Of a stretch of 64,000 nucleotides of DNA, positions 4,813 to 54,562 are shown in pieces. Position numbers and translations under genes: made by a program. Numbering within the stretch: position 1 is the stretch's first letter; each line of letters starts with the position of its first letter. The stretch is from an uncultured Phycisphaerales bacterium (GTDB lineage Bacteria > Planctomycetota > Phycisphaerae > Tepidisphaerales > Tepidisphaeraceae). The DNA lies in contig CAVWVQ010000003.1 in assembly GCA_963758525.1 (NCBI GenBank), positions 1,696,001 through 1,760,000 of the forward strand, in the 5' to 3' direction. The notes under the pieces are model-generated. The model ran no database searches. It had not been told where the DNA came from and saw only the letters and a program-made list of their open reading frames with translations.

Positions 4813-4958
4813 GGAAGCCAGGAGTCAGGAGCCAGAAGTAAGGAGCAATGAGGGAAACGCAGCGGCATTGTCCCTACCTCCGATTTCTGCTTCATTGATT
4901 CTGACTTCTGACTTCTGACTTCTGACTTCTGGCTTCTTGCTTCTGACTCCTGGCTCCT
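4813..4958. repeat. Inverted heptamer tandem-repeat cassette (AGAAGTC-like / (TTCTGAC)n)
   Basis: Left arm 4813-4845; right arm 4899-4958 with four perfect TTCTGAC units. Confidence 0.85.
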
Positions 4959-5003
4959 TCCTTCCGCCTTCTTGCTCGTCGCTTCTTCCCGTACATTCGT
5001 TCC

Positions 5004-10498: not shown

Positions 10499-10718
10499 AG
10501 AGGGTTCAGGGTGTCAGAAGTCAGGGTTCAGGGTGTCAGGGTTCAGTGGGTTCAGGGCGTTCGGGTCGTTAGTAGCTCATTTGCGCTGAACGGGCGTTCC
10601 TTTGCGACTTAATGGAGCCGGTGTACATGGATCGGAGCTGGGTGGCATTCGCTAAACCTGAACCCTGAACCCTGAACCCTGAACCCTGAACCCTGAACCC
10701 TGACACCCTGAACCCTCT
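10499..10718. repeat. Inverted heptamer tandem-repeat cassette (GGGTTCA)n / (CCTGAAC)n
   Basis: Left arm 10499-10557; right arm 10657-10718 with six perfect CCTGAAC units; terminal 19 nt perfectly complementary. Confidence 0.9.
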
Positions 10719-11469: not shown

Positions 11470-11656
11470 CGAATGACGAAACCAGAAACCAGAATCAGAC
11501 CAGAAATCAGAATGACGAATGACTGAGACGAGTCCAGGGGCTGCGTTCAATTCAGTAGGCATAGCCACTGACGGGAATCACTGGCGCGCGAACTCGTTCA
11601 TTCAGGCATTCGTCATTCTGGCTTGATTCGGCATTCTGGTTTCGGAATTCTGGTTT
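11470..11656. repeat. Degenerate inverted heptamer cassette (GAATGAC/GAAACCA vs CATTCTG/CATTCGT) downstream of rpsD
   Basis: Left arm 11470-11523, right arm 11598-11656. Confidence 0.75.
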
Positions 11657-33137: not shown

Positions 33138-34298
33138 TCAGCTTTCCGGCCGGTCGAGCGGCGCGGGAGCTTCGGGCGGGGCGGCGCCCGTCAACGCGGC
33201 CATGATCCGCTCGACATGCACGTGACAATTCTCGATGAACAGCGCGTACTTATCCTGCGTCCCGCCAGTCGCCGTGCCGGCGACATAAAGCCCCGGCACG
33301 TTCGTCTCCATGGTGCGAAGATCGTAGCGCGGCGCCCGGCATTCACCGAGCAATTCGACCCCCGCAAGCTTCAGCAGCGACACGTCTGCCTCATACCCCA
33401 CCAGCAGCAGCACAAAATCCGCCTGCACCGCCGCCCGAGCGGTAGAGTAATTCACAGTCGACGAAGAACTCGCGCCTTCCCCTCCCTCCCCTCCCTCTCC
33501 TTCCTCACCCTTCGTGCCTTGGTGCCTCCGTGCCTCCGTGCCTTCCCCCCCAGTGCCTTCCCCCCCAGTGCCTTCCCTCTCAAGCACCACTTCATTTTCC
33601 GTAATCTTCACCGGCAACGTTCCGAAATGGGCCTCGATGCGTCCGCTGGCGATGAGGGAGGCGATTTCCGGAGTCAGCCAATACTTGATGCTGCGCCAAT
33701 CCAGTTCGGCGCGTCGATAGCTGAGCACCACCTTCGCCCCGGCGTGATGGCAGCGCAAGGCGGCTTCGATTGCCGAATTCTTGCCACCGACGATCATCAG
33801 CCGCCGGCCGAAATATTCGTGGGGATCGCGAAAATAGTGGCTGACGTGCGGCAGATCTTCCCCCTCGATTTGCAGCCGCCGCGGGCGATCCGTCCCGCCG
33901 GTGACCAGAATCAGCCGGTTGGCACGGCAGCGCCGTTCTCCACTCTTCGGACGCGTCGTGATGGAAAAGCCGCCGCCGTCGTGGCGATCGATCCCAACGA
34001 CAGGCTCGTACGTCCGCACCCGCAGATCGAATTGCCTCACGACCGAGCGAAGATACGCAAGGTACTGCTCGCGCGTCGCCTTCGACTGGTCCGGCGTCTC
34101 CAATGGCACTCCAGCAATCGCGATCCGTTCGTTGGAGCTGAAGAATCGCGTCTGCGGCGCGAACCACGAAATGGTGTACCCGATCTGGCGTGCGTCAAAG
34201 TGCACATAGTCGATCCCGGCCCGTTTGAGCGCAACGGCCATCTCCAGCCCAATCGGGCCGGCTCCGACGATCGCGACGTCCGCGCGGCTCACATCCAT
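33138..34298 (-). CDS. YpdA/Bdr-like FAD/NAD(P)H disulfide oxidoreductase with low-complexity in-frame insertion
   Basis: GAGPIG, FFSS, REQYLAY, GEDLPHVSHYF..PH, GGKNSA, IKYW, METNVPGLYVAG, FIEN..H. Confidence 0.85.
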   Translation of the reverse strand: MDVSRADVAIVGAGPIGLEMAVALKRAGIDYVHFDARQIGYTISWFAPQTRFFSSNERIAIAGVPLETPDQSKATREQYLAYLRSVVRQFDLRVRTYEPVVGIDRHDGGGFSITTRPKSGERRCRANRLILVTGGTDRPRRLQIEGEDLPHVSHYFRDPHEYFGRRLMIVGGKNSAIEAALRCHHAGAKVVLSYRRAELDWRSIKYWLTPEIASLIASGRIEAHFGTLPVKITENEVVLEREGTGGEGTGGEGTEARRHQGTKGEEGEGGEGGEGASSSSTVNYSTARAAVQADFVLLLVGYEADVSLLKLAGVELLGECRAPRYDLRTMETNVPGLYVAGTATGGTQDKYALFIENCHVHVERIMAALTGAAPPEAPAPLDRPES

Positions 34299-43098: not shown

Positions 43099-45174
43099 TC
43101 ACAGCTTCAAGTCGGTCAGGAATTCAGAACCCGGCTCCACTGCGGTAACCAGCAGACGATCTCTTGCCCGCGTGCAGGCGACGTACAGAAGCTGCCGCTC
43201 AGAGTCGTACACGCTCTCGAGTTCCGATTCGTCCGCCACACTTTGCACGCGATGTTCGTCAGGGATGACGCCATCATCGCAGCCCATCACGGCCACCGCG
43301 CGGAACTCAAGACCCTTGGCGTCGTGCATGGTGCCGATCATGATCCGCCCCGCAGTATCCGGCGAAATATCCCGCAGCTCGGAGCCGGCGGTCGATGAGC
43401 GCTTGACGGATTGCCATGCTCGCTGTTTCTGTCCGCTGGAGCGAACGAAGATCGCGATTTGAGCTGGCGTAATCCCCGACGCCTTGCAGGATGAAATCCA
43501 CTCTGCCACGGCGTCGATCTCGGCATCTTCTGTCTTTGCAATCCCGATAGTGGGCGGTGGACCATTGAACACCGACTGCGTTCGATCCCGTTCATCGGCG
43601 ATCCCGTCCACGTCCGTCACCGTCTTGGGCAGCAGGCGATCCGCGTGTTTCCGAATCTCGTTGGATGTTCGATAGTTGATGCGAAGCGTGTGCGAACGGC
43701 CACGCACGTCCACCCCTAATGATTTCCAGGAAAACGGCGACTGAAAAATACGCTGGCCCAGATCGCCGGCGAACATGAGCCCATTCGCCTTGTCACCGGC
43801 AAGGGCTGCAAGAAAACGCAACTGCGCCACACTCACGTCCTGCGCCTCATCCACCACGATATTGTCGTACAGTCGTTGTTCCGAACTCTCAGTTGTGTTG
43901 GGCGTTACCGCCCCAAATACCTGAGCCATGGTCACAAGGCCCGCGCCGGCCAACTCGTTCTCAACCTGCTCGAAGATCGTCCAGAGCTGATCTCTCTGTT
44001 TCTCCGTCAGGCGCGTCTTTCGACCCAGACGTGCGACGTTGCGATAAGCATCTCGCGTGCGCAACTGCCATGCATCAACCACGTCGTTCCACTCCGCCCA
44101 CAGGAACGCATCAGAGAAGCGGTGCGGCGCCGCAACTTTTGACGCCTTTGCGAGCGCGTCCCGGATAGTCGCTTCACGTGCGATCACGGCTTTGCCATGC
44201 TGTTGAGCATAGATTTCGAGGCCGACATCGTCGATTGAGCTGACTGTCACGCGAGAGGCAATCTCCGGATAGCCCGCCAGCAGGGTTGCCAGACGGGATC
44301 GAAGGTGACTCGCCAGCAGATCCGAGAAGGTCGTCAACAGCACCTTGTTCTGCGGATATTTCCGGGCCAGGAAGGCGGCGCGGTGAAGCGCCACCACGGT
44401 CTTTCCGGTCCCCGCCGAGCCGGCGACCCGCGCGGGTCCGCTGAATTGCCGCTGGACCAGCTTCTTCTGGTCCGGATGAAGAAAGATCGACCACGTCTCC
44501 CACGGCGCCTCCAAGGCCTGCGCCAATTCGGCCACGTCGGTCATCAGCCGGAAACGCTGCTGCGCCGCCGGATGCTCGAACGGATCGGCACCCGCGCCGA
44601 CTGGCTCCGGCAGCGTCGGCGTGTACCCAGTCGCCAGGTCCAGCAGCGCCTCGGCCGCCTCGCGCGGCAGATGCTCGGCGACATCGAAAATCGTGTCTTC
44701 CGTCGCCCCTCTGACATCCGCGACCCATTCCGCCGGCACGCCATACTTCAGCAACTGATCGTCGGCGACGCTCAGAAATAGCGCCCGCGGCTTGGCGGGT
44801 TTGGCTGGCGGGTGCGTGTAAGTCGGAATGACGACCTCCTGCACGCGCTCCCGGATTTCAACGAGCTGCGCCGCTCCGGTCGTCGGATGCCGCTCGATCT
44901 TCCGCCGCTCCGCCCAGTCGTACGCGTCGTCATGATGACCGACATAGCAGAGCAGCAGGCTTGCTGCCGTTTTGTGGACGATCAGGCGAATGTCGCGGCC
45001 GACGCGCACCGACCAGAAATTCCTGTCTTTCGCCTTATCCAGCTTGTGCAACTGCATGCCCGGTGTGGCCGGGTTCAGTTGCAGATCAAATGCAGTGGTC
45101 TTGACGAGCTTCTGCTCGTCGTTGGTCAACCGGGCCATGCTGCCGGTGAACGTGTCGGCGATGCGGAAGTCCAC
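43099..45174 (-). CDS. UvrD/Rep-like SF1 helicase with N-terminal RelE/ParE-like domain
   Basis: GSAGTGKT, VVDEAQD, GDLGQRI, NYRT, HDAKGLEF, LYVACTRAR; N-term LHKL...FWSVRV..DIRLI...YVGHHD. Confidence 0.88.
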   Translation of the reverse strand: MDFRIADTFTGSMARLTNDEQKLVKTTAFDLQLNPATPGMQLHKLDKAKDRNFWSVRVGRDIRLIVHKTAASLLLCYVGHHDDAYDWAERRKIERHPTTGAAQLVEIRERVQEVVIPTYTHPPAKPAKPRALFLSVADDQLLKYGVPAEWVADVRGATEDTIFDVAEHLPREAAEALLDLATGYTPTLPEPVGAGADPFEHPAAQQRFRLMTDVAELAQALEAPWETWSIFLHPDQKKLVQRQFSGPARVAGSAGTGKTVVALHRAAFLARKYPQNKVLLTTFSDLLASHLRSRLATLLAGYPEIASRVTVSSIDDVGLEIYAQQHGKAVIAREATIRDALAKASKVAAPHRFSDAFLWAEWNDVVDAWQLRTRDAYRNVARLGRKTRLTEKQRDQLWTIFEQVENELAGAGLVTMAQVFGAVTPNTTESSEQRLYDNIVVDEAQDVSVAQLRFLAALAGDKANGLMFAGDLGQRIFQSPFSWKSLGVDVRGRSHTLRINYRTSNEIRKHADRLLPKTVTDVDGIADERDRTQSVFNGPPPTIGIAKTEDAEIDAVAEWISSCKASGITPAQIAIFVRSSGQKQRAWQSVKRSSTAGSELRDISPDTAGRIMIGTMHDAKGLEFRAVAVMGCDDGVIPDEHRVQSVADESELESVYDSERQLLYVACTRARDRLLVTAVEPGSEFLTDLKL

Positions 45175-45184
45175 CCCGGTGCCC

Positions 45185-45844
45185 CTAGTTCGCGACGTTT
45201 GCGTCGATTTGATGGATCATCTGCCAGAGCCGGTCAGATTCACCACGCTCGACGATCTGAATCGGGGGCTGTCCCTCGAAAGCTTCATTGGGCGTCCGCA
45301 GCCATTCTCCGAGATGCTCCGGCGGCATGATCTCGGCGAGGGCATCGAACAATCGCTTGGTTTCCGTCAATTTCTGACGCGCCGAGTCGCTCAGGAGCCT
45401 TCCAGCCTCCCAGCCGGCGACAGAGCGGGTCGAATACCCTGTGATCCGCCCCATATCCTCCTGCGAGACGCCGGCCAATTTTCGAACTTCGCTGACACTG
45501 ACCATCGCTTTCGTTGTCTCGTGCTGTCGCCGGATGATCATTTTGCCATGGTGCACAGCCGTCGCAGTGCCAGCACCTGAGTGCCAAAAACCTTTCATCT
45601 GAAGCGCTTGGCCTGACAGACCAGAAGATCTCGGCCCCTTGAGCCGCGTTCGGTGATGAAGGGCCTTGAGACCTCTAAGTTTTCCGCTGAGAGGTGTTAC
45701 CTTTGCACCAATGGCTGCCTTCCCCCCAACCGGATAATGGTGCTTTTTACCGCCGGCGACCTGCCTTTTGGCGGCTGCACCCTTTGACTTAACCGTATGA
45801 GGCATACGTTCTCCAAGCTCATGGACTATCGGCATTTTACCCAA
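45185..45844 (-). CDS. Xre/MbcA/ParS-type antitoxin (HTH + C-terminal toxin-binding domain)
   Basis: HTH VSQEDMGRITGYSTRSVAGWE; WLRTPNEAFEGQPP; start uncertain. Confidence 0.8.
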   Translation of the reverse strand: MGKMPIVHELGERMPHTVKSKGAAAKRQVAGGKKHHYPVGGKAAIGAKVTPLSGKLRGLKALHHRTRLKGPRSSGLSGQALQMKGFWHSGAGTATAVHHGKMIIRRQHETTKAMVSVSEVRKLAGVSQEDMGRITGYSTRSVAGWEAGRLLSDSARQKLTETKRLFDALAEIMPPEHLGEWLRTPNEAFEGQPPIQIVERGESDRLWQMIHQIDANVAN

Positions 45845-45851
45845 CAGATTA

Positions 45852-45867
45852 CATGCAATATTGCATG
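45852..45867. promoter_or_regulatory. Perfect 16-bp palindrome (candidate operator) upstream of antitoxin
   Basis: CATGCAATATTGCATG in the toxin-antitoxin intergenic gap. Confidence 0.55.
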
Positions 45868-45879
45868 CAATGCAGCATC

Positions 45880-46491
45880 TTACTTCTGTTTCCCAAGTTT
45901 CTCAAGCTCCCCGGCGTTCAGCACCTCGATGCCCAGGCTGCCCGTCAGGCCGGAAGGGAACAAAACAAGATTCACCCCGGCGGGATCCGGCCTCGAGGGA
46001 ACCAGCAGGCCCTGAATACCGGCGTCAAACACCGCCCGTCCGAGCGCCTGGGTCGCCGACTCATCTCCACGTCCCATAACGGCTCGCCAATTTTCAGCCA
46101 TCAGATTGGCGAGCGGTTCCGGCAATCCGGCTGCAATCGCTGGTTGAGTCAGGTCAAGAACGGCATCCGCTTTCACCCGAATGGCAATAACCACCTTCGG
46201 AAATCCCCTCCAAACGGCGGTCCCAAAGTAGCGGGCATGCTCATTTGCTTCATGCATCGCCGTCTCTGGTGCTCGGCTGAGATAGACGACGTTCATCACT
46301 CCTGGTGGATTCCACCGGCCGCCGCCGAGAAATGCGCCGACCCCAGCGATAATCTCGTCCGCAGATGTGTGCCGGGGTCCCGCCACGCGGTAGAAGACAC
46401 CGTCAACCCCCAGCCGGTCCGTCTGAACCGAAAGCCAGTGCTGAAATGCGCCATACCGAGGATGTGGCCCTAACTTCATATTTCCCCTCAT
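45880..46491 (-). CDS. RES-domain toxin (putative NAD+ phosphorylase/ART)
   Basis: YR, GGRWN, VYLS...E, VLDL, TQALG, GLLVPS, NLVLF. Confidence 0.88.
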   Translation of the reverse strand: MRGNMKLGPHPRYGAFQHWLSVQTDRLGVDGVFYRVAGPRHTSADEIIAGVGAFLGGGRWNPPGVMNVVYLSRAPETAMHEANEHARYFGTAVWRGFPKVVIAIRVKADAVLDLTQPAIAAGLPEPLANLMAENWRAVMGRGDESATQALGRAVFDAGIQGLLVPSRPDPAGVNLVLFPSGLTGSLGIEVLNAGELEKLGKQK

Positions 46492-49443
46492 TCCACCCGG
46501 AACACCTTCATCACCTCATCCCCCAGGTGATTGATCACCTTCACCGCGATCTTCCCATCCTTCGGCTTTGGGAACGGCCTTGACGTGTCGCTGTTCAGCG
46601 TCGCCCAGGCATCTTCGTTGATCTCGGCGCGGAGCGTCGTCTTCAGGCTCTTGTAGGGATCGTTCGCGCCGAGGAAGTACGCCTGGCGGACGAAGAAGCT
46701 TTCTTCGTTGTAGTTGGTATCGATGAACCAGCAGGCGATTCCTTCGGCGCCGTCGCTGCGAACTTCGCGGGAGTTGGGGTGGAAAACGTCCACGCCATTG
46801 ATGCGGACACGGATCATGTCGAAGTCTTTCGGGTCTGCATTTGCCGGAGCGTCTTCGGGCGGGAGGATCTGAATGTCCGGCTCGCCGAAGATCACAAACA
46901 GATTGCCTTTGCCGGTGTTCTTCAGCTCCGTTCCCATGTGCAGTTCGGCGTTCATCCGCGCCTTGAGCACGGGGATTCTTCCAAGCTTGTTGAATTCACT
47001 GGCATGGGCCTCATAGTTGAACGCGCAGGCGATCAGCACGTCGAAGTTGGCATCTCCAGCTTCGCGGGCAGCCATCACGAGGTTCTGCCTTCCTGCCGTG
47101 CCGAACTCGGGACCGATGAAGATGCCGGCCCTGTGGGGAGGGGGAGAATGTTGAATAGTGAATTTAGAATTGTGAATTGAGGATGGGGAGGGGAGGCGGA
47201 TTTGTGTTCACTTCACTATTCACTATTCCCAATTCACTATTCTCTTCATACGTTCCCACCGCGCAGATATACGTTCCCGGCCAACCCGCGAGCGAAGTGA
47301 AGTCGATCTTGTCCTTTTTGTCCGCTTGCTGCACGCCGGCGGTGCGCAGGTTGTCCAGGATCATCTGAGCAAAATCTTTCGCATCACCGTCCTGGCGGGC
47401 GGCTTGCTGCGGATCGATCAGCTCATCATCCGCGCCCACCGTCATCACCCGGTGCGGGGACAAGCTCTCAACTGTGAATGGCCCGGCAACGCGAACCTTC
47501 TTCTTGTCCTCATATGGCTTGTCGTAGAGAAACTCGAACTCCGCCTTGGCGGCAATCGAGGCGTCGATCTCCTTCTGCCGCCCAATGCGGAGCGCCCAGA
47601 AATTGCTGTGAAGGCCCTTGGCCTCGGCCGACCAATTCGAATCCCCGTCTCTCGGTATCTCCCATTCCTCCAACAGGCTCTTCGCCTTCGTCGCGACCGA
47701 CAACTGGCCGCGGATCACTGACAATTGGCTTTCAAACTTCTCCCAGATGACATCGATCTCCGCGTTGTTGGCGATCGACTTCAGAGTGATGTGCGGCACC
47801 CGCTCGTAGACGAATCCCTGCCGCAGGCTGTCGTGCGTGGGAGCGGTACTCGGCTCGGTCCGCGACACCTCCGCCTCCTTCAACTGCCCCTCCCGGCTGT
47901 CGGCTTTCAGATAAAACGGATACCGCGCCCCCATGATCCGCGCCCGTGCCAACGCCAGCGCAACCCGCGATGTGTCGATCGTGATCCACCGCCGGCCCCA
48001 TTGCTCGGCGACATAAGCCGTGGTGCCGGAACCGCAGGTGGGATCCAGAACCAGATCGCCAGGGTCGGTTGCCATCAGCAAGCACCGCTCGACGACTTTC
48101 ACGTTCGTTTGAACGACATAGATTTTGAGATCAGTAAATTGTCCGGTCGCGGTGTCATCCCAAACGTTCGCTCTTGCCTTGACCGGGAAGTCACCGATCT
48201 CGCGGATGTATCGCAGCGAGTTCTCGGCCATGTATATCCGGTCCCCTTTGAGCAATCGCAGCATTCCGTCTGGATATCGCGCTTTCCAATGCGAGTTAGC
48301 GGGTGGTCGAAAATCGCGCCCGCGAACTTTGAAGGGATGGTCGGCGGCCGCTGCGCCCTGGGATATTAGATTGTCTGGCTTAAACGCGCGGATGTCTTTA
48401 TTCAGAGTAGCCGTGCTAACGCTTTCCCCAGATTTGAGAGAACGGGTTACACCGGGCGCTTCCTTTATCCAGCGTATGCTCCCTCTTGGCGATCTTGACT
48501 GAAAACTTCCCAAAGCTGCCGATATTTTGTCCCATCTGCCTTTCGCCCGTACCACAGAACATGGTCGGCGATATTCGCAAGCTTGCCGCTTTCGAAGCCG
48601 CCTGTTGTCGTGAAAACGATATCGCTTAGAAAATTGGATTCTCCGAACACTTCGTCGAGAACTGCTCGGACCCGATGAACATTCGCGTCGCCAATCTGAA
48701 CGAACACAGAGCCTGTCTCACTCAACAAGTCGCGCGCGACCGCCAGTCGGTCGCGAAGGTATGTGAAGGTACGAATTGATACCGTCTCGCCAGGTATCCC
48801 GAAACGCCTTTACCTGCTCCGGCTCTCGGGTCATGTGATCGACGCTGCCATCCTTCACATCCCGGCTGGTGGTTGACCACTGGAAATTCGAGTTGAATTT
48901 GATGCCATACGGCGGGTCGAGGTAGATGCATTGGACTTTGCCGCGGAGGCCTTCGCGCTCGGCGAGGCTGGCCATGACTTGCAGGCTGTCGCCGAGGATC
49001 AGCCGGTTGGCCCAGTGGGCGTCGTGGGCGTAGAAGTCGGTTTTGGCGTCGGTGTCGGGAAGGCCGTTGAAGTCGGCAAAGAGGTCGATCTGCGGGCCGA
49101 TGCCGACATCCTTCTGCCGCAGCACCTGCGCCGCGAGGCGTGCGGCATCGGACTGGCGCTTGATGTCGTCGATCAGCACCTTGGGATGCACCTTCTCCTG
49201 AATAAACAGCGGCGGCGCCGGAACCACCAGATCGGACCAATCCTGCTCGTCCTTTCCGCGCCAGACCAGTTGCGGATCGAGATCGCGATTCCGCCGCTCA
49301 TAGGCCACCCGCAGCGGCGACTGCTGATCGGTGCGCATGACCGATTCGTATTCAGCCGTGGGAATGTTCTTGCGCGACGCTTCGTCGTGAGTGAGGGTGA
49401 CGATGTCCTTTGCTGATGCGGGCTTGGTTGTGCGCTTGGCCAT
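46488..49443 (-). CDS. mod: Type III-like N6-adenine DNA methyltransferase (three frameshifts; contains repeat insertion)
   Basis: ILGDSL, IYLDPPYGIKF, VLDPTCGSGTT, VAGPFTVESL, IAVKVINHLGDE; pieces 48718-49443, 48465-48728, 47164-48555, 46488-47190. Confidence 0.88.
47146..47242. repeat. Inverted heptamer cassette (GAATAGT)n/(ACTATTC)n inside methyltransferase ORF
   Basis: Arms 47146-47180 and 47207-47242 around a purine-rich spacer. Confidence 0.88.
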
Positions 49444-49447
49444 GGGA

Positions 49448-49478
49448 AGAATAGTGAATAGTGAATGTCGAATAGTGA
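49448..49478. repeat. (GAATAGT)n arm downstream of four-helix-bundle gene
   Basis: AGAATAGTGAATAGTGAATGTCGAATAGTGA. Confidence 0.9.
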
Positions 49479-49490
49479 AAAAGGAAGAGG

Positions 49491-49853
49491 CTAGCCTCGG
49501 GTGTTTTTGACGATTGTTGTGAGGATGGCGACGAGCTGGTGGGATTCGTCCACGAGATCAGCAAGTTTCTCGGCCGGAATGATTTGTACCGCTGCCAGCA
49601 ACCGGAGCCAGTAATTGGCTTCGCGTGCTTCTTTGCAGGCGATGCTCATCTTCGACAGAAAGTCAGCGCGGCTCTGTCCAGCCTGCGCTTCCTCGACGTT
49701 TGCGCCCACCGACGTGGCTGACCTGAGAAGTTGTCCTACGAGCGCCCGGTTTCCGGTTGACCGGTCGAAGGACTGGCAAACCCGCACCACGCGCAAAGCG
49801 AAAGCAAAGGTTCGCTCAGCGATATCCCGCGGCTTTCCAACTTCACTATTCAC
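49491..49853 (-). CDS. Four-helix-bundle protein (TIGR02436 / 23S rRNA IVP family)
   Basis: RTFAFALRV, QLLRSATSVGANVEEAQ..SRADF..K..I..KEARE..YWL. Confidence 0.92.
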   Translation of the reverse strand: MNSEVGKPRDIAERTFAFALRVVRVCQSFDRSTGNRALVGQLLRSATSVGANVEEAQAGQSRADFLSKMSIACKEAREANYWLRLLAAVQIIPAEKLADLVDESHQLVAILTTIVKNTRG

Positions 49854-49872
49854 TATTCACCCTTCACTATTT
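49842..49872. repeat. (ACTATTC)n arm upstream of four-helix-bundle gene
   Basis: TTCACTATTCACTATTCACCCTTCACTATTT; contains rhuM stop and the GTG start. Confidence 0.9.
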
Positions 49873-50882
49873 TCCTGAATTCGCTTTACCTCGCGATCGA
49901 AGTCGCTTTCAAAAACCTGATCCTGACGGACGCGAAAAACCGCGTATTGTTCTTCCGCCAGCTGGCGAGCGACTTCGGCGGAAACTGAACCGGCATCGGT
50001 GAGCACCTGGTACTCGTTGAACTGCAGAAACGCATCAAGCCGTTTCACCCAGTCGGTCATCTTCATGGGGATTTGCCTGGCGGCCTGGTTCTCGGCGTAA
50101 TCCAGATACATGCTGACGATGCGATCCAGCTCTTTGATTTCCTGCTCGATCAGGTAGTTCTTTGCGATCCGGACATCCGCTTTGAGGATTTTGCCCTGCG
50201 GCGCGTTCTTCCACGTGGTGAGTCCCATTGATGGCCTGGTAGCATCGGCGCGGCTGGCGATGATTTCGGCGGCGGTCTTGCCGCTGACTGCCCAGTGCAG
50301 CTTGTTCTGCACCGTCTGAAAAAACAGCTGGGTAATCGACGCGTTCTTGTCGTAGTCGATGCTGCATTGCTCGTAAATGTCGGTGATCTTGTGGTAGAAC
50401 CGGCGCTCACTGGCGCGGATTTCGCGAATCCGCTGCAGCAGTTCTTCGAAGTAATCCTTGCCGAACCGTTTGTTCAGTTTGAGGCGCTCATCATCGAGCA
50501 CGAATCCTTTGATGATAAATTCCCGCAAGGTCTGGGTCGCCCAGATGCGGAATTGAGTCGCCTGGGCGCTGTTGACGCGGTAGCCCACGGAGATGATGGC
50601 ATCCAGGTTATAGAACTCAATTTCGCGCGAGACCTCACGATTGCCCTCGCGTTGAACTCTTCGAATTTTTCGAATAGTTGGATCTTCCTGCAGCTCCCCG
50701 GACGCGTAAATCTCTTTCAGGTGGTAATTTATGGTGGGAAGCTCTACGCCAAAGAGCTCTGAGAGTTGCTTTTGGCTCAGCCAGAACGTCTCCGTCTGAT
50801 ACAGCACTTCAACGCGGACCGCACCGCTTGCGGCGCGATACAGAATAATCTGACCCTCGTCTGGACCTTCTGTGTCGCTCAT
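49857..50882 (-). CDS. rhuM: RhuM-family protein
   Basis: WLSQKQLSELF, YNLDAIISVGYRVNS..ATQFRIWA, KGFVLDDERLK, IRASERRFY. Confidence 0.9.
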   Translation of the reverse strand: MSDTEGPDEGQIILYRAASGAVRVEVLYQTETFWLSQKQLSELFGVELPTINYHLKEIYASGELQEDPTIRKIRRVQREGNREVSREIEFYNLDAIISVGYRVNSAQATQFRIWATQTLREFIIKGFVLDDERLKLNKRFGKDYFEELLQRIREIRASERRFYHKITDIYEQCSIDYDKNASITQLFFQTVQNKLHWAVSGKTAAEIIASRADATRPSMGLTTWKNAPQGKILKADVRIAKNYLIEQEIKELDRIVSMYLDYAENQAARQIPMKMTDWVKRLDAFLQFNEYQVLTDAGSVSAEVARQLAEEQYAVFRVRQDQVFESDFDREVKRIQENSEG

Positions 50883-53800
50883 GGCGTCACCTCGTGCGCG
50901 AGCTTGATCTGCGAACGAACATCGCCCGAGACGGCACATTCAATCATTTCGTCAAAGTACTTCTTCACCGTAGTCTCGAAATCGCTGCCGATTTGGTAGA
51001 CGTCGGCGAACTCGGCGAACGCCCAGCGCCCGAAGCTGTTGAGGTGATTGACGCCGGGCACCCAGTAGGTGTCCATCGTGGTCTTCTTGTCCTTGGCATC
51101 CTCGCCGCTATATCCCTTGATTTCGACGATCAGGTGGAGCGGATCATCGGGGCCGTGGCCGTCGTCGACGATGACGATGAAGTCGGGGCGGTACATGCGC
51201 GTTTCCGAGCCGTAGCGATAGGGAACTTCCAGACCGAGGTTGTAGTTCTTCACGTAACACAGCACGCGCGGATGGGATTCAGCGACCCGGCAGAACTCGG
51301 CTTCCCAGTTGCTGTCGAGAATCACCCAGTTGATCTGGCACTTGTCCGGGGAAGTCTGCCAGCGATCGGTTTTGGAAGTTGTGAAGTTGACGTGACGCGT
51401 GGAACTCTGGGGATTGTATGGATCAAGCACAGCACAGATCGGGCGTTGGCCAATGAATGCGCGGGTGATTCCGGCGGTGATGCGTTCGCAAGCCATGTCG
51501 GCCAGCGTCTGATACATGAGTTGGGCGGGAAATGTCTGGCCCTTGCAGACCAGATGCGAATCGAGCCATTGACGAGTGACGCGCTTGAGCTGGCCAAAGA
51601 GGTGCAGCTTGGGTTCCTCGCCGGGGTCGCGCCATTTGGTTTCCATGAGCCGCTTGGCGAGATGGAACAGGAGCGTTGACTGGCGGACGTCGCCGAGATG
51701 CTTGAGGTTCAAATCGACGGACGCCCCAATGATTCCCTCATTACGCGTGACACTCGGCCCCACCAGGTCAGGCGTGAGAACGAGCGTCGAGTCGTCATTG
51801 AAGACTGCATTGAGGCGCTCTTCGGGCAGTTCGACGCGATACCCTTCCACACGGGGAAATTCAATTTCCAGATTGTCGCGATCCGGGCGGACGGCCTTCA
51901 CCTGAACCGTCTCCCGCGGCGGCTGTGGCGGCGCGACCACCGGCTTTGCGGTGAAGTCGAACGGAATTCCCAGCACATCCGCATATTCGACATTGAACAG
52001 CCCCTCCTCATTGAGGTTGTACGATTGTCGGCGCAACGCGCGGCCGATGACCTGTTCGCAGAGAAGTTGTGTGCCAAACGCACGGACGCCCAGAACGTGG
52101 GTAACGGTGTTGGCGTCCCACCCTTCGGTGAGCATGGAGACGGAGACCACGCAACGGATCGATTCGCCAAGACGGCCCTTCTTGCCGACGGTGTTCATCA
52201 CTTCGCGGAGCAGATCTTCGTCGGTGAGCTTCTCGGCCTGCTGTCGGTCGCCAGTCCGCTCGACGATTTCCCGACGGAAGCGGTCAATTTCCTCGGACGC
52301 CATGTCGCGGAAGTTGGCATCGAGAGAGTCGCCGGATTCGAGTTGCTCGCTGTCGATCAGCAGCGTGCGCGGGCGACCGTACTGATTGCCGTGCTCGTCA
52401 AAATTGCGAAAGAGTTCGAGGCGGCCGTTTTCAAGCGTTGATGAGCCGTCGGACTTCTGGCGATGGAAGCCCGAGATGTAGTCATAGATCAACTTCGACG
52501 CGCTGGTGTTATTGCAGACGACAATGAAACAGGGCGGGACGCCGATGCCAGCCTTCTCCCACAACTCAAAAGTCTTGGCGTAGTGTCCGTAGAGGGCATC
52601 GAGCGCAGTGATGAGGGGCGTCGGAAGACTCAGCGGATCGAGATTGGCTGCTTTCCCGCGCCCTTTGCGGGGCATCTGCTTGCCGATGTGCTTCCACAAC
52701 TCACGGAAGATGGGGACCTCGGCCTCGGGAATGTTGTCTGCGACGGGCACGCGAGGCAGCTTGACGATGCCGCACTCGATGGCGTCCATCAGCGAAAAGT
52801 CGGTCATCGTCCATGGAAACAGCGTCCCTTCCGCGTAGCCGGAGCCACGGAGAAAGAACGGCGTGGCGGATAGATCGACGATGCGGTTGATACCGAGTTT
52901 ATCTTTTACGGCTTCGAGCCCGTTCACCCAGAGCCGGGCGGCTTTGCTGTTCTTCTCCGCCTCTTCCTTTTCGTCGCCGGAGAGATCCGGCTCGTCATCC
53001 AGCTCCGGCTTCTCGCGATAACAGTGATGAGCTTCATCGTTCAGCACCATCACGCCCTTCATGCCCATCAGTCCCGGCATGACCCGCTGGAGCATCTGCC
53101 CCTGAGATTCCAGCGTATTCAATTCAGGGCCATGACCTTGAAGCAAGGCACGCCCGCCTGCCGAGAGCTCAACCGTTTCGCGGAGCCGGAAGGCGTGGTA
53201 ATTGGTGATGATGATCTTCGCGCGGCCAAGATCGGCCAGCATATCGTTCGGGACAAGCTCGCGGCTCTGGTAATAGCTGTCGGGGTCGTTTGGCTGCAGC
53301 ACGCGCAGGCGATCGCGAATGGTCAGACCCGGCGTAACGACGAGGAAGCCGCGCGCAAAGCGCCTGCTGCCCGGTCGCCGCACGGCGTTGACGGTTTGCC
53401 AAGCGATGATCATTGCCATCACCGTGGTCTTTCCGGCACCGGTCGCCAGCTTTAGCGCCATGCGCGCTAACCCCGGATTCGAAGAGTCGTTCGCAGCGTT
53501 AAGGTGGTCGAGTATCGACTGGCCCTCTTTTCCGATGGCCGGCGCAACTTCAGTCAGCCAGATCGCGGTCTCGACTGCCTCAACCTGACAAAAGAAGGGT
53601 CGGACGCCACTGAACTTGTGATGGCGCCAGTGTTGAAGGAGTCGCGCCGTTTCAGGGGTGACCCGCCAATCTTCCGCGTTTGGAATTCCCCGCCATCGAT
53701 CAATAAGTTGGCGCAGATGGTTGATGTTGCTCGATGTCGCTTCGTATTGCTGGGCCGCCGTGGAAAGGCCCAGCCCTTCGTTGAAGACCAGCTCCTGCTG

Positions 53801-53971
53801 CGCCACCCGCGTCTGCTTTTTCGACTTGGGTATTGGGGTGACGAATTCGGCCCGCCGACGTTTTGGAGAAATCTGACTAGTCGGTTGACCGGTGCCGTCC
53901 AGCTCCCAGTGCTGGTTCGGGTACGCGTACGGCGAATTGAGAATCGGGTGATCAAAAAATGAAGTTGCCAT
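50879..53971 (-). CDS. res: Type III restriction Res-like helicase-nuclease (BPTD_3080-like)
   Basis: KLATGAGKT, NDEAHH, SATP, MLTEGWD, QVIGRALR, PDF...VEIKG nuclease. Confidence 0.9.
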   Translation of the reverse strand: MATSFFDHPILNSPYAYPNQHWELDGTGQPTSQISPKRRRAEFVTPIPKSKKQTRVAQQELVFNEGLGLSTAAQQYEATSSNINHLRQLIDRWRGIPNAEDWRVTPETARLLQHWRHHKFSGVRPFFCQVEAVETAIWLTEVAPAIGKEGQSILDHLNAANDSSNPGLARMALKLATGAGKTTVMAMIIAWQTVNAVRRPGSRRFARGFLVVTPGLTIRDRLRVLQPNDPDSYYQSRELVPNDMLADLGRAKIIITNYHAFRLRETVELSAGGRALLQGHGPELNTLESQGQMLQRVMPGLMGMKGVMVLNDEAHHCYREKPELDDEPDLSGDEKEEAEKNSKAARLWVNGLEAVKDKLGINRIVDLSATPFFLRGSGYAEGTLFPWTMTDFSLMDAIECGIVKLPRVPVADNIPEAEVPIFRELWKHIGKQMPRKGRGKAANLDPLSLPTPLITALDALYGHYAKTFELWEKAGIGVPPCFIVVCNNTSASKLIYDYISGFHRQKSDGSSTLENGRLELFRNFDEHGNQYGRPRTLLIDSEQLESGDSLDANFRDMASEEIDRFRREIVERTGDRQQAEKLTDEDLLREVMNTVGKKGRLGESIRCVVSVSMLTEGWDANTVTHVLGVRAFGTQLLCEQVIGRALRRQSYNLNEEGLFNVEYADVLGIPFDFTAKPVVAPPQPPRETVQVKAVRPDRDNLEIEFPRVEGYRVELPEERLNAVFNDDSTLVLTPDLVGPSVTRNEGIIGASVDLNLKHLGDVRQSTLLFHLAKRLMETKWRDPGEEPKLHLFGQLKRVTRQWLDSHLVCKGQTFPAQLMYQTLADMACERITAGITRAFIGQRPICAVLDPYNPQSSTRHVNFTTSKTDRWQTSPDKCQINWVILDSNWEAEFCRVAESHPRVLCYVKNYNLGLEVPYRYGSETRMYRPDFIVIVDDGHGPDDPLHLIVEIKGYSGEDAKDKKTTMDTYWVPGVNHLNSFGRWAFAEFADVYQIGSDFETTVKKYFDEMIECAVSGDVRSQIKLAHEVTP

Positions 53972-54403
53972 CGCTTCCCGATCCCCCGTTGGGCAGATTC
54001 ATTGCGACGGCGCATTTTCCAGGAGAGATTCAGCCCCGTCGGGGCCATTCTAATCACGCCAGCAAATTTGGCCAGTTCTCCGGCGACCCGGCGAGCCAGT
54101 CTGACAATTCTGAAGGAATGTGTCAGCGATCGCCCACGGGAGCAGACGAACGTCGGTGCCTGCTCTTCGTACGGAAGAATGTCTCTGACTTGTCGTAATG
54201 CAAGCAATTTTGCGTTATTTACGCACTCCTCGAAAGCGTAAAATTCCGTAAAGTTGTGTAAAGCGAACCGCTGATTCCGAGTGACAGATGAGGGTCGGCC
54301 GCCCGGCGGCGACCCGCGTTGTCCTGGATTGTAAAGCGGCTTTATGCCCGCTCACCTTCACTCTGCAATATCAATTCGTTGGTGCAGGGCGTCAGAGAAA
54401 AGT

Positions 54404-54456
54404 CGAATGCCCAAGGCCCAATGGCCAGCAAATGCCCAAGTCTCAAGGCCCAAGGG
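54404..54456 (+). repeat. Degenerate heptamer tandem (CAAGGCC/CAATGCC-like)
   Basis: CGAATGCCCAAGGCCCAATGGCCAGCAAATGCCCAAGTCTCAAGGCCCAAGGG. Confidence 0.55.
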
Positions 54457-54492
54457 AAGACGGCGGGGTCGGAGCCAGCGCAATCTCCCGGT

Positions 54493-54562
54493 GTAGCCGG
54501 CGAGCATGCTCGCCGTTGTGTTTCCGGGGAGCGGGAACACGGCGGGCATGCCCACCGGCTAC
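54493..54562. repeat. GTAG-type REP doublet (second family)
   Basis: GTAGCCGGCGAGCATGCTCGCCG ... CGGCGGGCATGCCCACCGGCTAC. Confidence 0.75.

Follow-up and report, generated by a model that had tools for sequence, protein, structure and literature searches.

Relation to Described Systems

In Coxiella burnetii, the 23S rRNA intervening sequence (IVS) is 444 nt long and closes in a 28-bp terminal stem that is cut by RNase III; tandem heptamers stand just 5' of a PF05635 (S23p) ORF in its loop, and the available part of the account reports that ORF as eroding and not expressed in vivo (PMC4990558). The bAvd protein of the Bordetella phage DGR is described, in the available part of a preprint, as pentameric, its five protomers each touching an RNA stem-loop (bioRxiv 10.1101/2023.10.23.563531). 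TAACTGA heptamers are dispersed in Beggiatoaceae (PMC4679880), and inverted pairs of GGGAATC occur in Xanthomonas (PMC4692102); in the available portions of these two reports, the period-7 arrays have 2-6 units and stand before starts lacking a Shine-Dalgarno sequence (SD) or in inverted pairs, and no four-helix-bundle gene is tied to them. PF05635 genes have also been noted inside cas operons (available part of PMC3936711).

The window analyzed here is a 64,000-nt stretch of the genome of an uncultured Phycisphaerales bacterium (G000; contig CAVWVQ010000003.1, positions 1,696,001 to 1,760,000), in which a cassette of ~430 nt consists of a four-helix-bundle gene enclosed by inverted GAATAGT heptamer arms. 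As far as the Coxiella IVS is described, the cassette resembles it in size (~440 nt), in terminal inverted repeats that form a stem, and in heptamers upstream of a PF05635 ORF, but it lies in a protein-coding operon rather than an rRNA helix, related copies occur inside coding sequences whose host frame is open, and its ORF, judged by substitution rates, is under purifying selection, whereas the Coxiella ORF is described as eroding. Because this IVS-like architecture is found outside any rRNA gene (between rhuM and mod, with no Rfam match), the cassette is a variant of the 23S rRNA IVS and not a member. The cargo shares its four-helix-bundle fold with bAvd, BT_0352 (2RLD), and Xcc0516 (2GSC) but, unlike bAvd, has no RT, template repeat, or variable repeat beside its gene; of the six RT matches that the genome contains, none lies closer than 0.8 Mb on this contig.

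Other inserts that keep the reading frame of a gene are Rickettsia palindromic elements and MITE/REP-type repeats. The inserts described below are similar in that hairpins are tolerated in frame in protein loops, but they differ in having heptamer-built arms and a cognate protein gene that can nest in another frame, and the cassette has no adjacent transposase. We found no published account of armed cassettes of this kind in the main text of the mainly open-access literature, and the class, which is real and non-random, is apparently undescribed in print as such.

Organization of the Cassette

The cassette is part of a minus-strand operon in the order res, a RhuM-family gene, the 120-amino acid TIGR02436/PF05635 gene, and mod. 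HMM searches identified the two host operon genes, res (50879-53971) as a BPTD_3080-family restriction subunit and mod (46488-49443) as an N6-adenine methyltransferase; the RhuM-family gene (PF13310; 49857-50882), whose ATG overlaps the res stop, is a variable passenger according to HMM and locus comparison. The 5', purine-rich arm (49835-49875, minus strand) comprises ~4.3 degenerate GAATAGT units; it carries the end of rhuM, stop codon included, then an SD-like stretch and the GTG at which the cargo gene (49491-49853, minus strand) starts, whereas the 3', pyrimidine-rich arm (49446-49490, minus strand) comprises ~4.4 ACTATTC units. Both arms were delimited by inverted-repeat and tandem-repeat searches and by folding: Tandem Repeats Finder places one period-7 array at 49449-49479 (4.4 copies) and a second at 49842-49871 (4.3 copies), and the top inverted pair of the region is the two arms themselves (37 nt, 78% complementary, 348 nt apart). 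The rhuM-family TGA (49859-49857) and the cargo GTG (49853) both fall within the upstream arm, the start lying one codon past the stop, and the last unit of the downstream array ends 6 nt short of the mod ATG (49443). These positions bear out the original observation that about four GAAUAGU units precede the gene and supply both the rhuM stop and the GTG, and that about four complementary units follow it close to the mod ATG.

The arms had also been expected to pair around the whole ORF, and folding agrees. The predicted stem of ~37 bp, which has several mismatches, contains the rhuM stop together with the SD and GTG of the cargo gene and terminates 3 nt ahead of the mod ATG; 37 of the 41 bases of the upstream arm pair with the downstream arm at a probability of at least 0.58. 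The transcript fold has an energy of -170.9 kcal/mol (z = -3.3), and none of 100 shuffled sequences was equally stable. Against an assumed anti-SD sequence, the cargo SD forms a duplex of -6.9 kcal/mol and the mod start has no SD (+3.6 kcal/mol). There was no Rfam match across 46000-54500, a search for sigma-70-type promoters found none, and no terminator-like site was found at the arms. The DNA 3' of mod (window 43099-46491) encodes a toxin-antitoxin pair of RES/Xre type as well as a UvrD-like helicase, which would fit a defence island.

The Cargo Protein

The assignment of the gene to TIGR02436 holds (96.9 bits against a cut-off of 24), and the same ORF matches PF05635 with an E-value of 4.7e-21 (75.5 bits, cut-off 33.8). 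The protein model has four helices (pLDDT 87.7) and, by structure comparison, belongs to the BT_0352 (2RLD)-like clade: its fold is similar to 2RLD (TM 0.82-0.84) and to 2GSC and, more distantly, bAvd (TM 0.73), although sequence identity to bAvd is 16-18% and the net charge is only about +3. Modeling with four copies favors self-association (score 0.45, best control 0.00), a result that may reflect likeness to the solved pentamers 2RLD and 2GSC; the mark used was attained by 21 of 30 solved homo-pairs and by none of 23 single chains, and the runs, all with four copies, gave at least 43% contact agreement and a pLDDT of at least 70. A pentameric ring, as in BT_0352, Xcc0516, and bAvd, is the probable form of the protein. 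Its closest homologue (L111) is 83% identical, and by the substitution rates between the two genes (dN 0.085, dS 0.90) the cargo gene is under purifying selection.

Arms and Words across the Family

Homologues were collected from this genome, 40 relatives, 80 metagenome loci, and four mod loci, the relatives' part being 30 loci returned plus 80 chosen from the matches listed; the set comprises 200 genes (191 unique proteins), 182 of them with full flanks. Inverted arms were detected at 145 of the 182 (80%), and homologues of both deep clades carry them; among controls, they were detected at 3 of 400 long genes taken from this genome and in 18 of 600 pairs of mismatched flanks. Arms and gene therefore form one unit, as had been proposed, and their association is not due to chance. 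Median arm length is 4.7-4.8 units, the purine-rich arm lies upstream in 128 of the 145, and the median cassette is 458 nt long; the rhuM-mod cassette is a typical member of the class, with additional evidence on read-through and decay. One exception is the L128 cassette, which has no 3' arm. The closest homologue is flanked by two complete GAATAGT-type hairpins (L111:2250-3150), which suggests local multiplication of arms.

The repeat word follows the protein clade and not the host. At the 122 loci where a word could be called, the arms become more alike as protein identity rises (Mantel rho 0.40, equaled in none of 300 permutations, with kin not independent), and paralogues of one genome almost never have a word in common. 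In 66 of 71 nearest-relative pairs a cassette's own arms pair better with each other than with those of the close relative; the arms thus change together. An AA-containing word accompanies 55 of 64 clade-II proteins but 6 of 44 clade-I proteins, and the clade-II core (RAAK) is conserved across many hosts while positions 5-7 drift. A residue-to-base code was sought but not established: the best columns had a mutual information of ~0.10-0.12, which lost support after phylogenetic control, and no residue-base pair was supported in the independent-pair tests listed, where independent pairs were too few for significance. The anticipated co-variation of protein and repeat stands at the level of lineage.

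Filled and Empty Junctions

Orthologous res-mod loci had been suggested as the place to look for empty sites, and they contain them. In a survey of 80 GTDB mod loci, the end of res and the start of mod are both visible in 74; the gap between the two is <260 nt in 25 of these and at least 260 nt in the other 49, which carry varied genes, YhcG-like and HTH/Fic-like by eye. In G010, the res stop overlaps the mod start. Across loci L032-L110, the junction between res and mod is a passenger hotspot. A related cassette lies directly 5' of mod in two loci (L035 and L047), and the order res, cassette, mod, without rhuM, occurs in the metagenome contigs L128 and L112/L119, the latter two being apparently one locus, of which L113 covers the cassette-mod part only. 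In L112 the change of sequence coincides with the outer edge of the 5' arm.

Among 165 cassettes of relatives, 43 have both flanks adjacent in G000: 40 of them lie between genes that are neighbors in G000, and three lie inside mod. Co-directionality was found in 41 of the 43. For 22 of the 40 junction-filling cassettes, at most 61 nt separate the flank matches in G000, several cassettes being at a common junction; at some junctions, cassettes differ in clade and word from one genome to another, and in G000 a repeat array occupies 8 of 42 junctions. Together with the copies nested in mod and dnaE2 (below), the 40 filled junctions support the suggestion that the cassette inserts between or within genes. 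In 80 of 127 cassettes (22 of 300 controls) the upstream stop is at most 10 nt away from the outer end of the arm, and in 77 of 127 (44 of 300 controls) an ATG stands at most 20 nt from the other end. The SD is weak downstream of cassettes (15%, against 39% in a control from one genome), a property that the pyrimidine arm confers automatically. By eye, the native spacer seems to have been replaced at filled junctions, the flanks being too diverged for a formal comparison of target-site duplications.

Copies within mod and dnaE2

The mod gene of the window itself contains repeat-derived inserts. Repeat search and locus comparison place a cargo-less GAATAGT hairpin in a variable loop of mod at 47149-47245 (minus strand; site B). 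By inspection of the sequence, 47695-47727 (minus strand; site A) is likely what is left, in frame, of decayed heptamers of another word; the L112 mod carries a full GAATAGT hairpin there. The L112 mod is open to the end of its locus, with two GAATAGT hairpins in frame, whereas the window hairpin at site B differs from that of L112 by one extra C in a C-run and is out of frame by one base. In the in-gene GAATAGT arms, the host frame has no stops and each other frame has two to five; three perfect units stop all frames, and the stop-making units are altered in the host frame. Tallied by hand, 12 mod genes contain 19 inserts derived from repeats, of which 17 are in frame; the exceptions are the window's mod hairpin and, in G002, a palindrome not built of heptamers.

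Whole cassettes are nested in mod in L035, L039, and L088 (one allele family) and in L003 (another mod subfamily), and in dnaE2 in G000 and G015. In each, the cargo gene occupies the +1 frame and the host frame stays open. Over all 185 genes, the host frame is open through the cargo in 15, against ~4.7 expected from synonymous shuffles, related copies being counted. Nested copies conserve the cargo frame (dN/dS ~0.09-0.2) but not the host-frame peptide. They point to a way in which one gene could reside within another without being spliced. The open host frames disfavor obligatory precise splicing for in-gene copies and argue that these are translated through. In the L046 mod, in the loop after GEPDI, a nested cassette lacks 72 codons from its middle yet keeps its arms and an open host frame; this internal-deletion copy is intermediate between gene-bearing and gene-less hairpins, and the latter can thus derive from the former. 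Unrelated palindromes occupy the same mod loops (L044, L051, and G002; L292 likewise), so that precise placement may be survival bias and not targeting.

The window's mod has three one-base frame changes (near 48765, 48470, and 47190). Since this exceeds a rough background of 0.05 per kb, both assembly error and real decay are possible; slippage may have occurred in the C-run, or mod may be a real pseudogene in this genome. The mod break in L039 is located outside its hairpins, and the broken-mod flags of L058, L059, and L066 look like stray-match artefacts; L059 has a 961-amino acid ORF. The dnaE2 gene of this genome (G000:C3:4375037-4378477; L272:2038-5475) has a nested 8-mer-armed cassette, a second in-frame hairpin, and an apparent frame change near its 3' end, and the cassette that G015 carries at this dnaE2 site is built with another 8-mer.

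Arrays Elsewhere in the Genome

G000 contains 620 arrays of period 7 or 8, most without cargo; for 415 of them an inverted partner lies no more than 800 nt away, against 6 at random places. GAATAGT-type arrays are found in this operon only, whereas the abundant words match the arms of other paralogues (104, 49, 41, and 14 arrays); most cargo-less hairpins of the window are thus sister families. They include AGAAGTC, GGGTTCA, GAAACCA/GAATGAC, and 8-mer types, at window positions 4899-4971, 10501-10716, 11478-11656, and 33509-33577. The proposal that the many cargo-less cassettes of the window are non-autonomous copies of this one consequently survives for the mod hairpin alone, since the others have the words of other paralogues.

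Cognate hairpins cluster near the gene for GAATAGT and for the dnaE2 paralogue (six arrays within 10 kb), and matches to a CAGTGG word fall within mod in 4 of 4 cases in G043 and 7 of 11 in G042, but in only 1 of 6 in G044. Such clustering is not general, as the GGGTTCA and GGAGCCA paralogues have none nearby and 104 and 40 elsewhere; where it occurs, it may be due to simple horizontal transfer of the module. Neither the cassette (whose cargo is PF05635 alone) nor its neighbors res, rhuM, and mod encode a transposase. An RT or a Y1 transposase as co-armed partner was rejected for G000: none of six RT genes has such arms, and none of the 19 Y1 transposase genes examined (of 23 listed) has period-7/8 arrays within 350 nt. 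One query of viral contigs returned no close relative.

Proposed Explanation and Alternatives

We consider it likely that the cassette is a selfish insert, present or absent at operon junctions, and that the predicted pairing of its arms in the mRNA would keep the host operon translated with the insert uncut. The stem would juxtapose the upstream stop and the SD-less mod start, preserving coupling, and would conceal the cargo SD and GTG, so that translation of the cargo would depend on ribosomes coming from rhuM. The protein, probably pentameric, would by analogy with bAvd bind the 4-5 heptamer units of its own arms in the form of single-stranded RNA or DNA, and this would account for the continued match of word and protein; plain co-inheritance could also give that match. 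In the third and weakest step, the cassette would be mobilized by a host or trans-acting enzyme, an outside enzyme being proposed because the cassette encodes no recognizable recombinase. It would also travel horizontally with the res-mod module.

An alternative is that the cassette is an mRNA intervening sequence, in which RNase III cuts the stem, frees the cargo loop, and splits res-rhuM from mod without re-ligation, the protein being incidental or an aid to spread. The architecture is that of the Coxiella IVS, with its RNase III-cut terminal stem and its heptamers before S23p (available part of PMC4990558), and the cassettes here have a comparable median length and predicted stem. Such a cut would, however, ruin the mod and dnaE2 messages that contain an in-gene cassette, and yet their host frames are open; it might also leave mod, which starts without an SD, poorly translated, and the stem has several mismatches. 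This explanation is unlikely for the class, although RNase III cutting of intergenic copies is possible. The abundance of arrays, most of them cargo-less, might instead mean that these are a general family of small palindromic hairpins that owe their spread to slippage, template switching, or some unrelated enzyme, with the gene as captured cargo whose match to its arms reflects shared descent. A GxxExxY gene with similar 8-mer arms, the failure to find a residue-base code, and the inverted GGGAATC pairs known in Xanthomonas, where the gene family is unmentioned in the available text (PMC4692102), would fit such passive cargo, but the frequency of arms in both deep clades, the RAAK core kept over clade-II proteins of many hosts while positions 5-7 drift, and the conservation of the protein would not, and we regard it as somewhat less probable still.

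Least probable of the three is a domesticated regulator, i.e., a host RNA-binding protein that recognizes the heptamer on its own leader and on dispersed hairpins and tunes downstream translation. Purifying selection on the protein and the match of abundant word families to paralogue arms would be expected of it, and TAACTGA repeats just 5' of SD-less starts have been proposed as regulator sites (available part of PMC4679880). Against it are the patchy presence of the cassette, its unrelated neighbors, the different cassettes at one junction among genomes, the confinement of the GAATAGT word to this operon, and the nesting of the gene in another frame within mod and dnaE2.

The selfish insert that we prefer may be one case of something broader, although here we are more tentative and hold the generalization to be somewhat doubtful: widespread minimal selfish elements whose Avd-like pentamer recognizes its own five-heptamer arms and drives insertion of the cassette and, often close by, of gene-less hairpins at translationally coupled junctions and in protein loops, the inserts being made harmless by mRNA looping or two-frame reading. 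Many unexplained heptamer repeats of bacteria would then stem from such elements, as would the rRNA IVSs that bear an ORF. If true, this would give a role to the large orphan family TIGR02436, known as 'S23 ribosomal protein', and would link the origin of ORF-bearing 23S rRNA IVSs with the 7-base repeats scattered through many bacteria; both puzzles are testable because each protein has a candidate word and filled and empty sites.

Other Armed Elements in the Genome

A parallel cassette type was noted in G000, in which a GxxExxY (TIGR04256) gene lies between inverted GCGAAGAC-type 8-mer arrays (G000:C3:275371-275900); one of the four GxxExxY genes of this genome has clean arms. Long head-to-tail clusters of nested 7- and 8-mer hairpins occur on the same contig at G000:C3:573900-575630 and 925667-926900.
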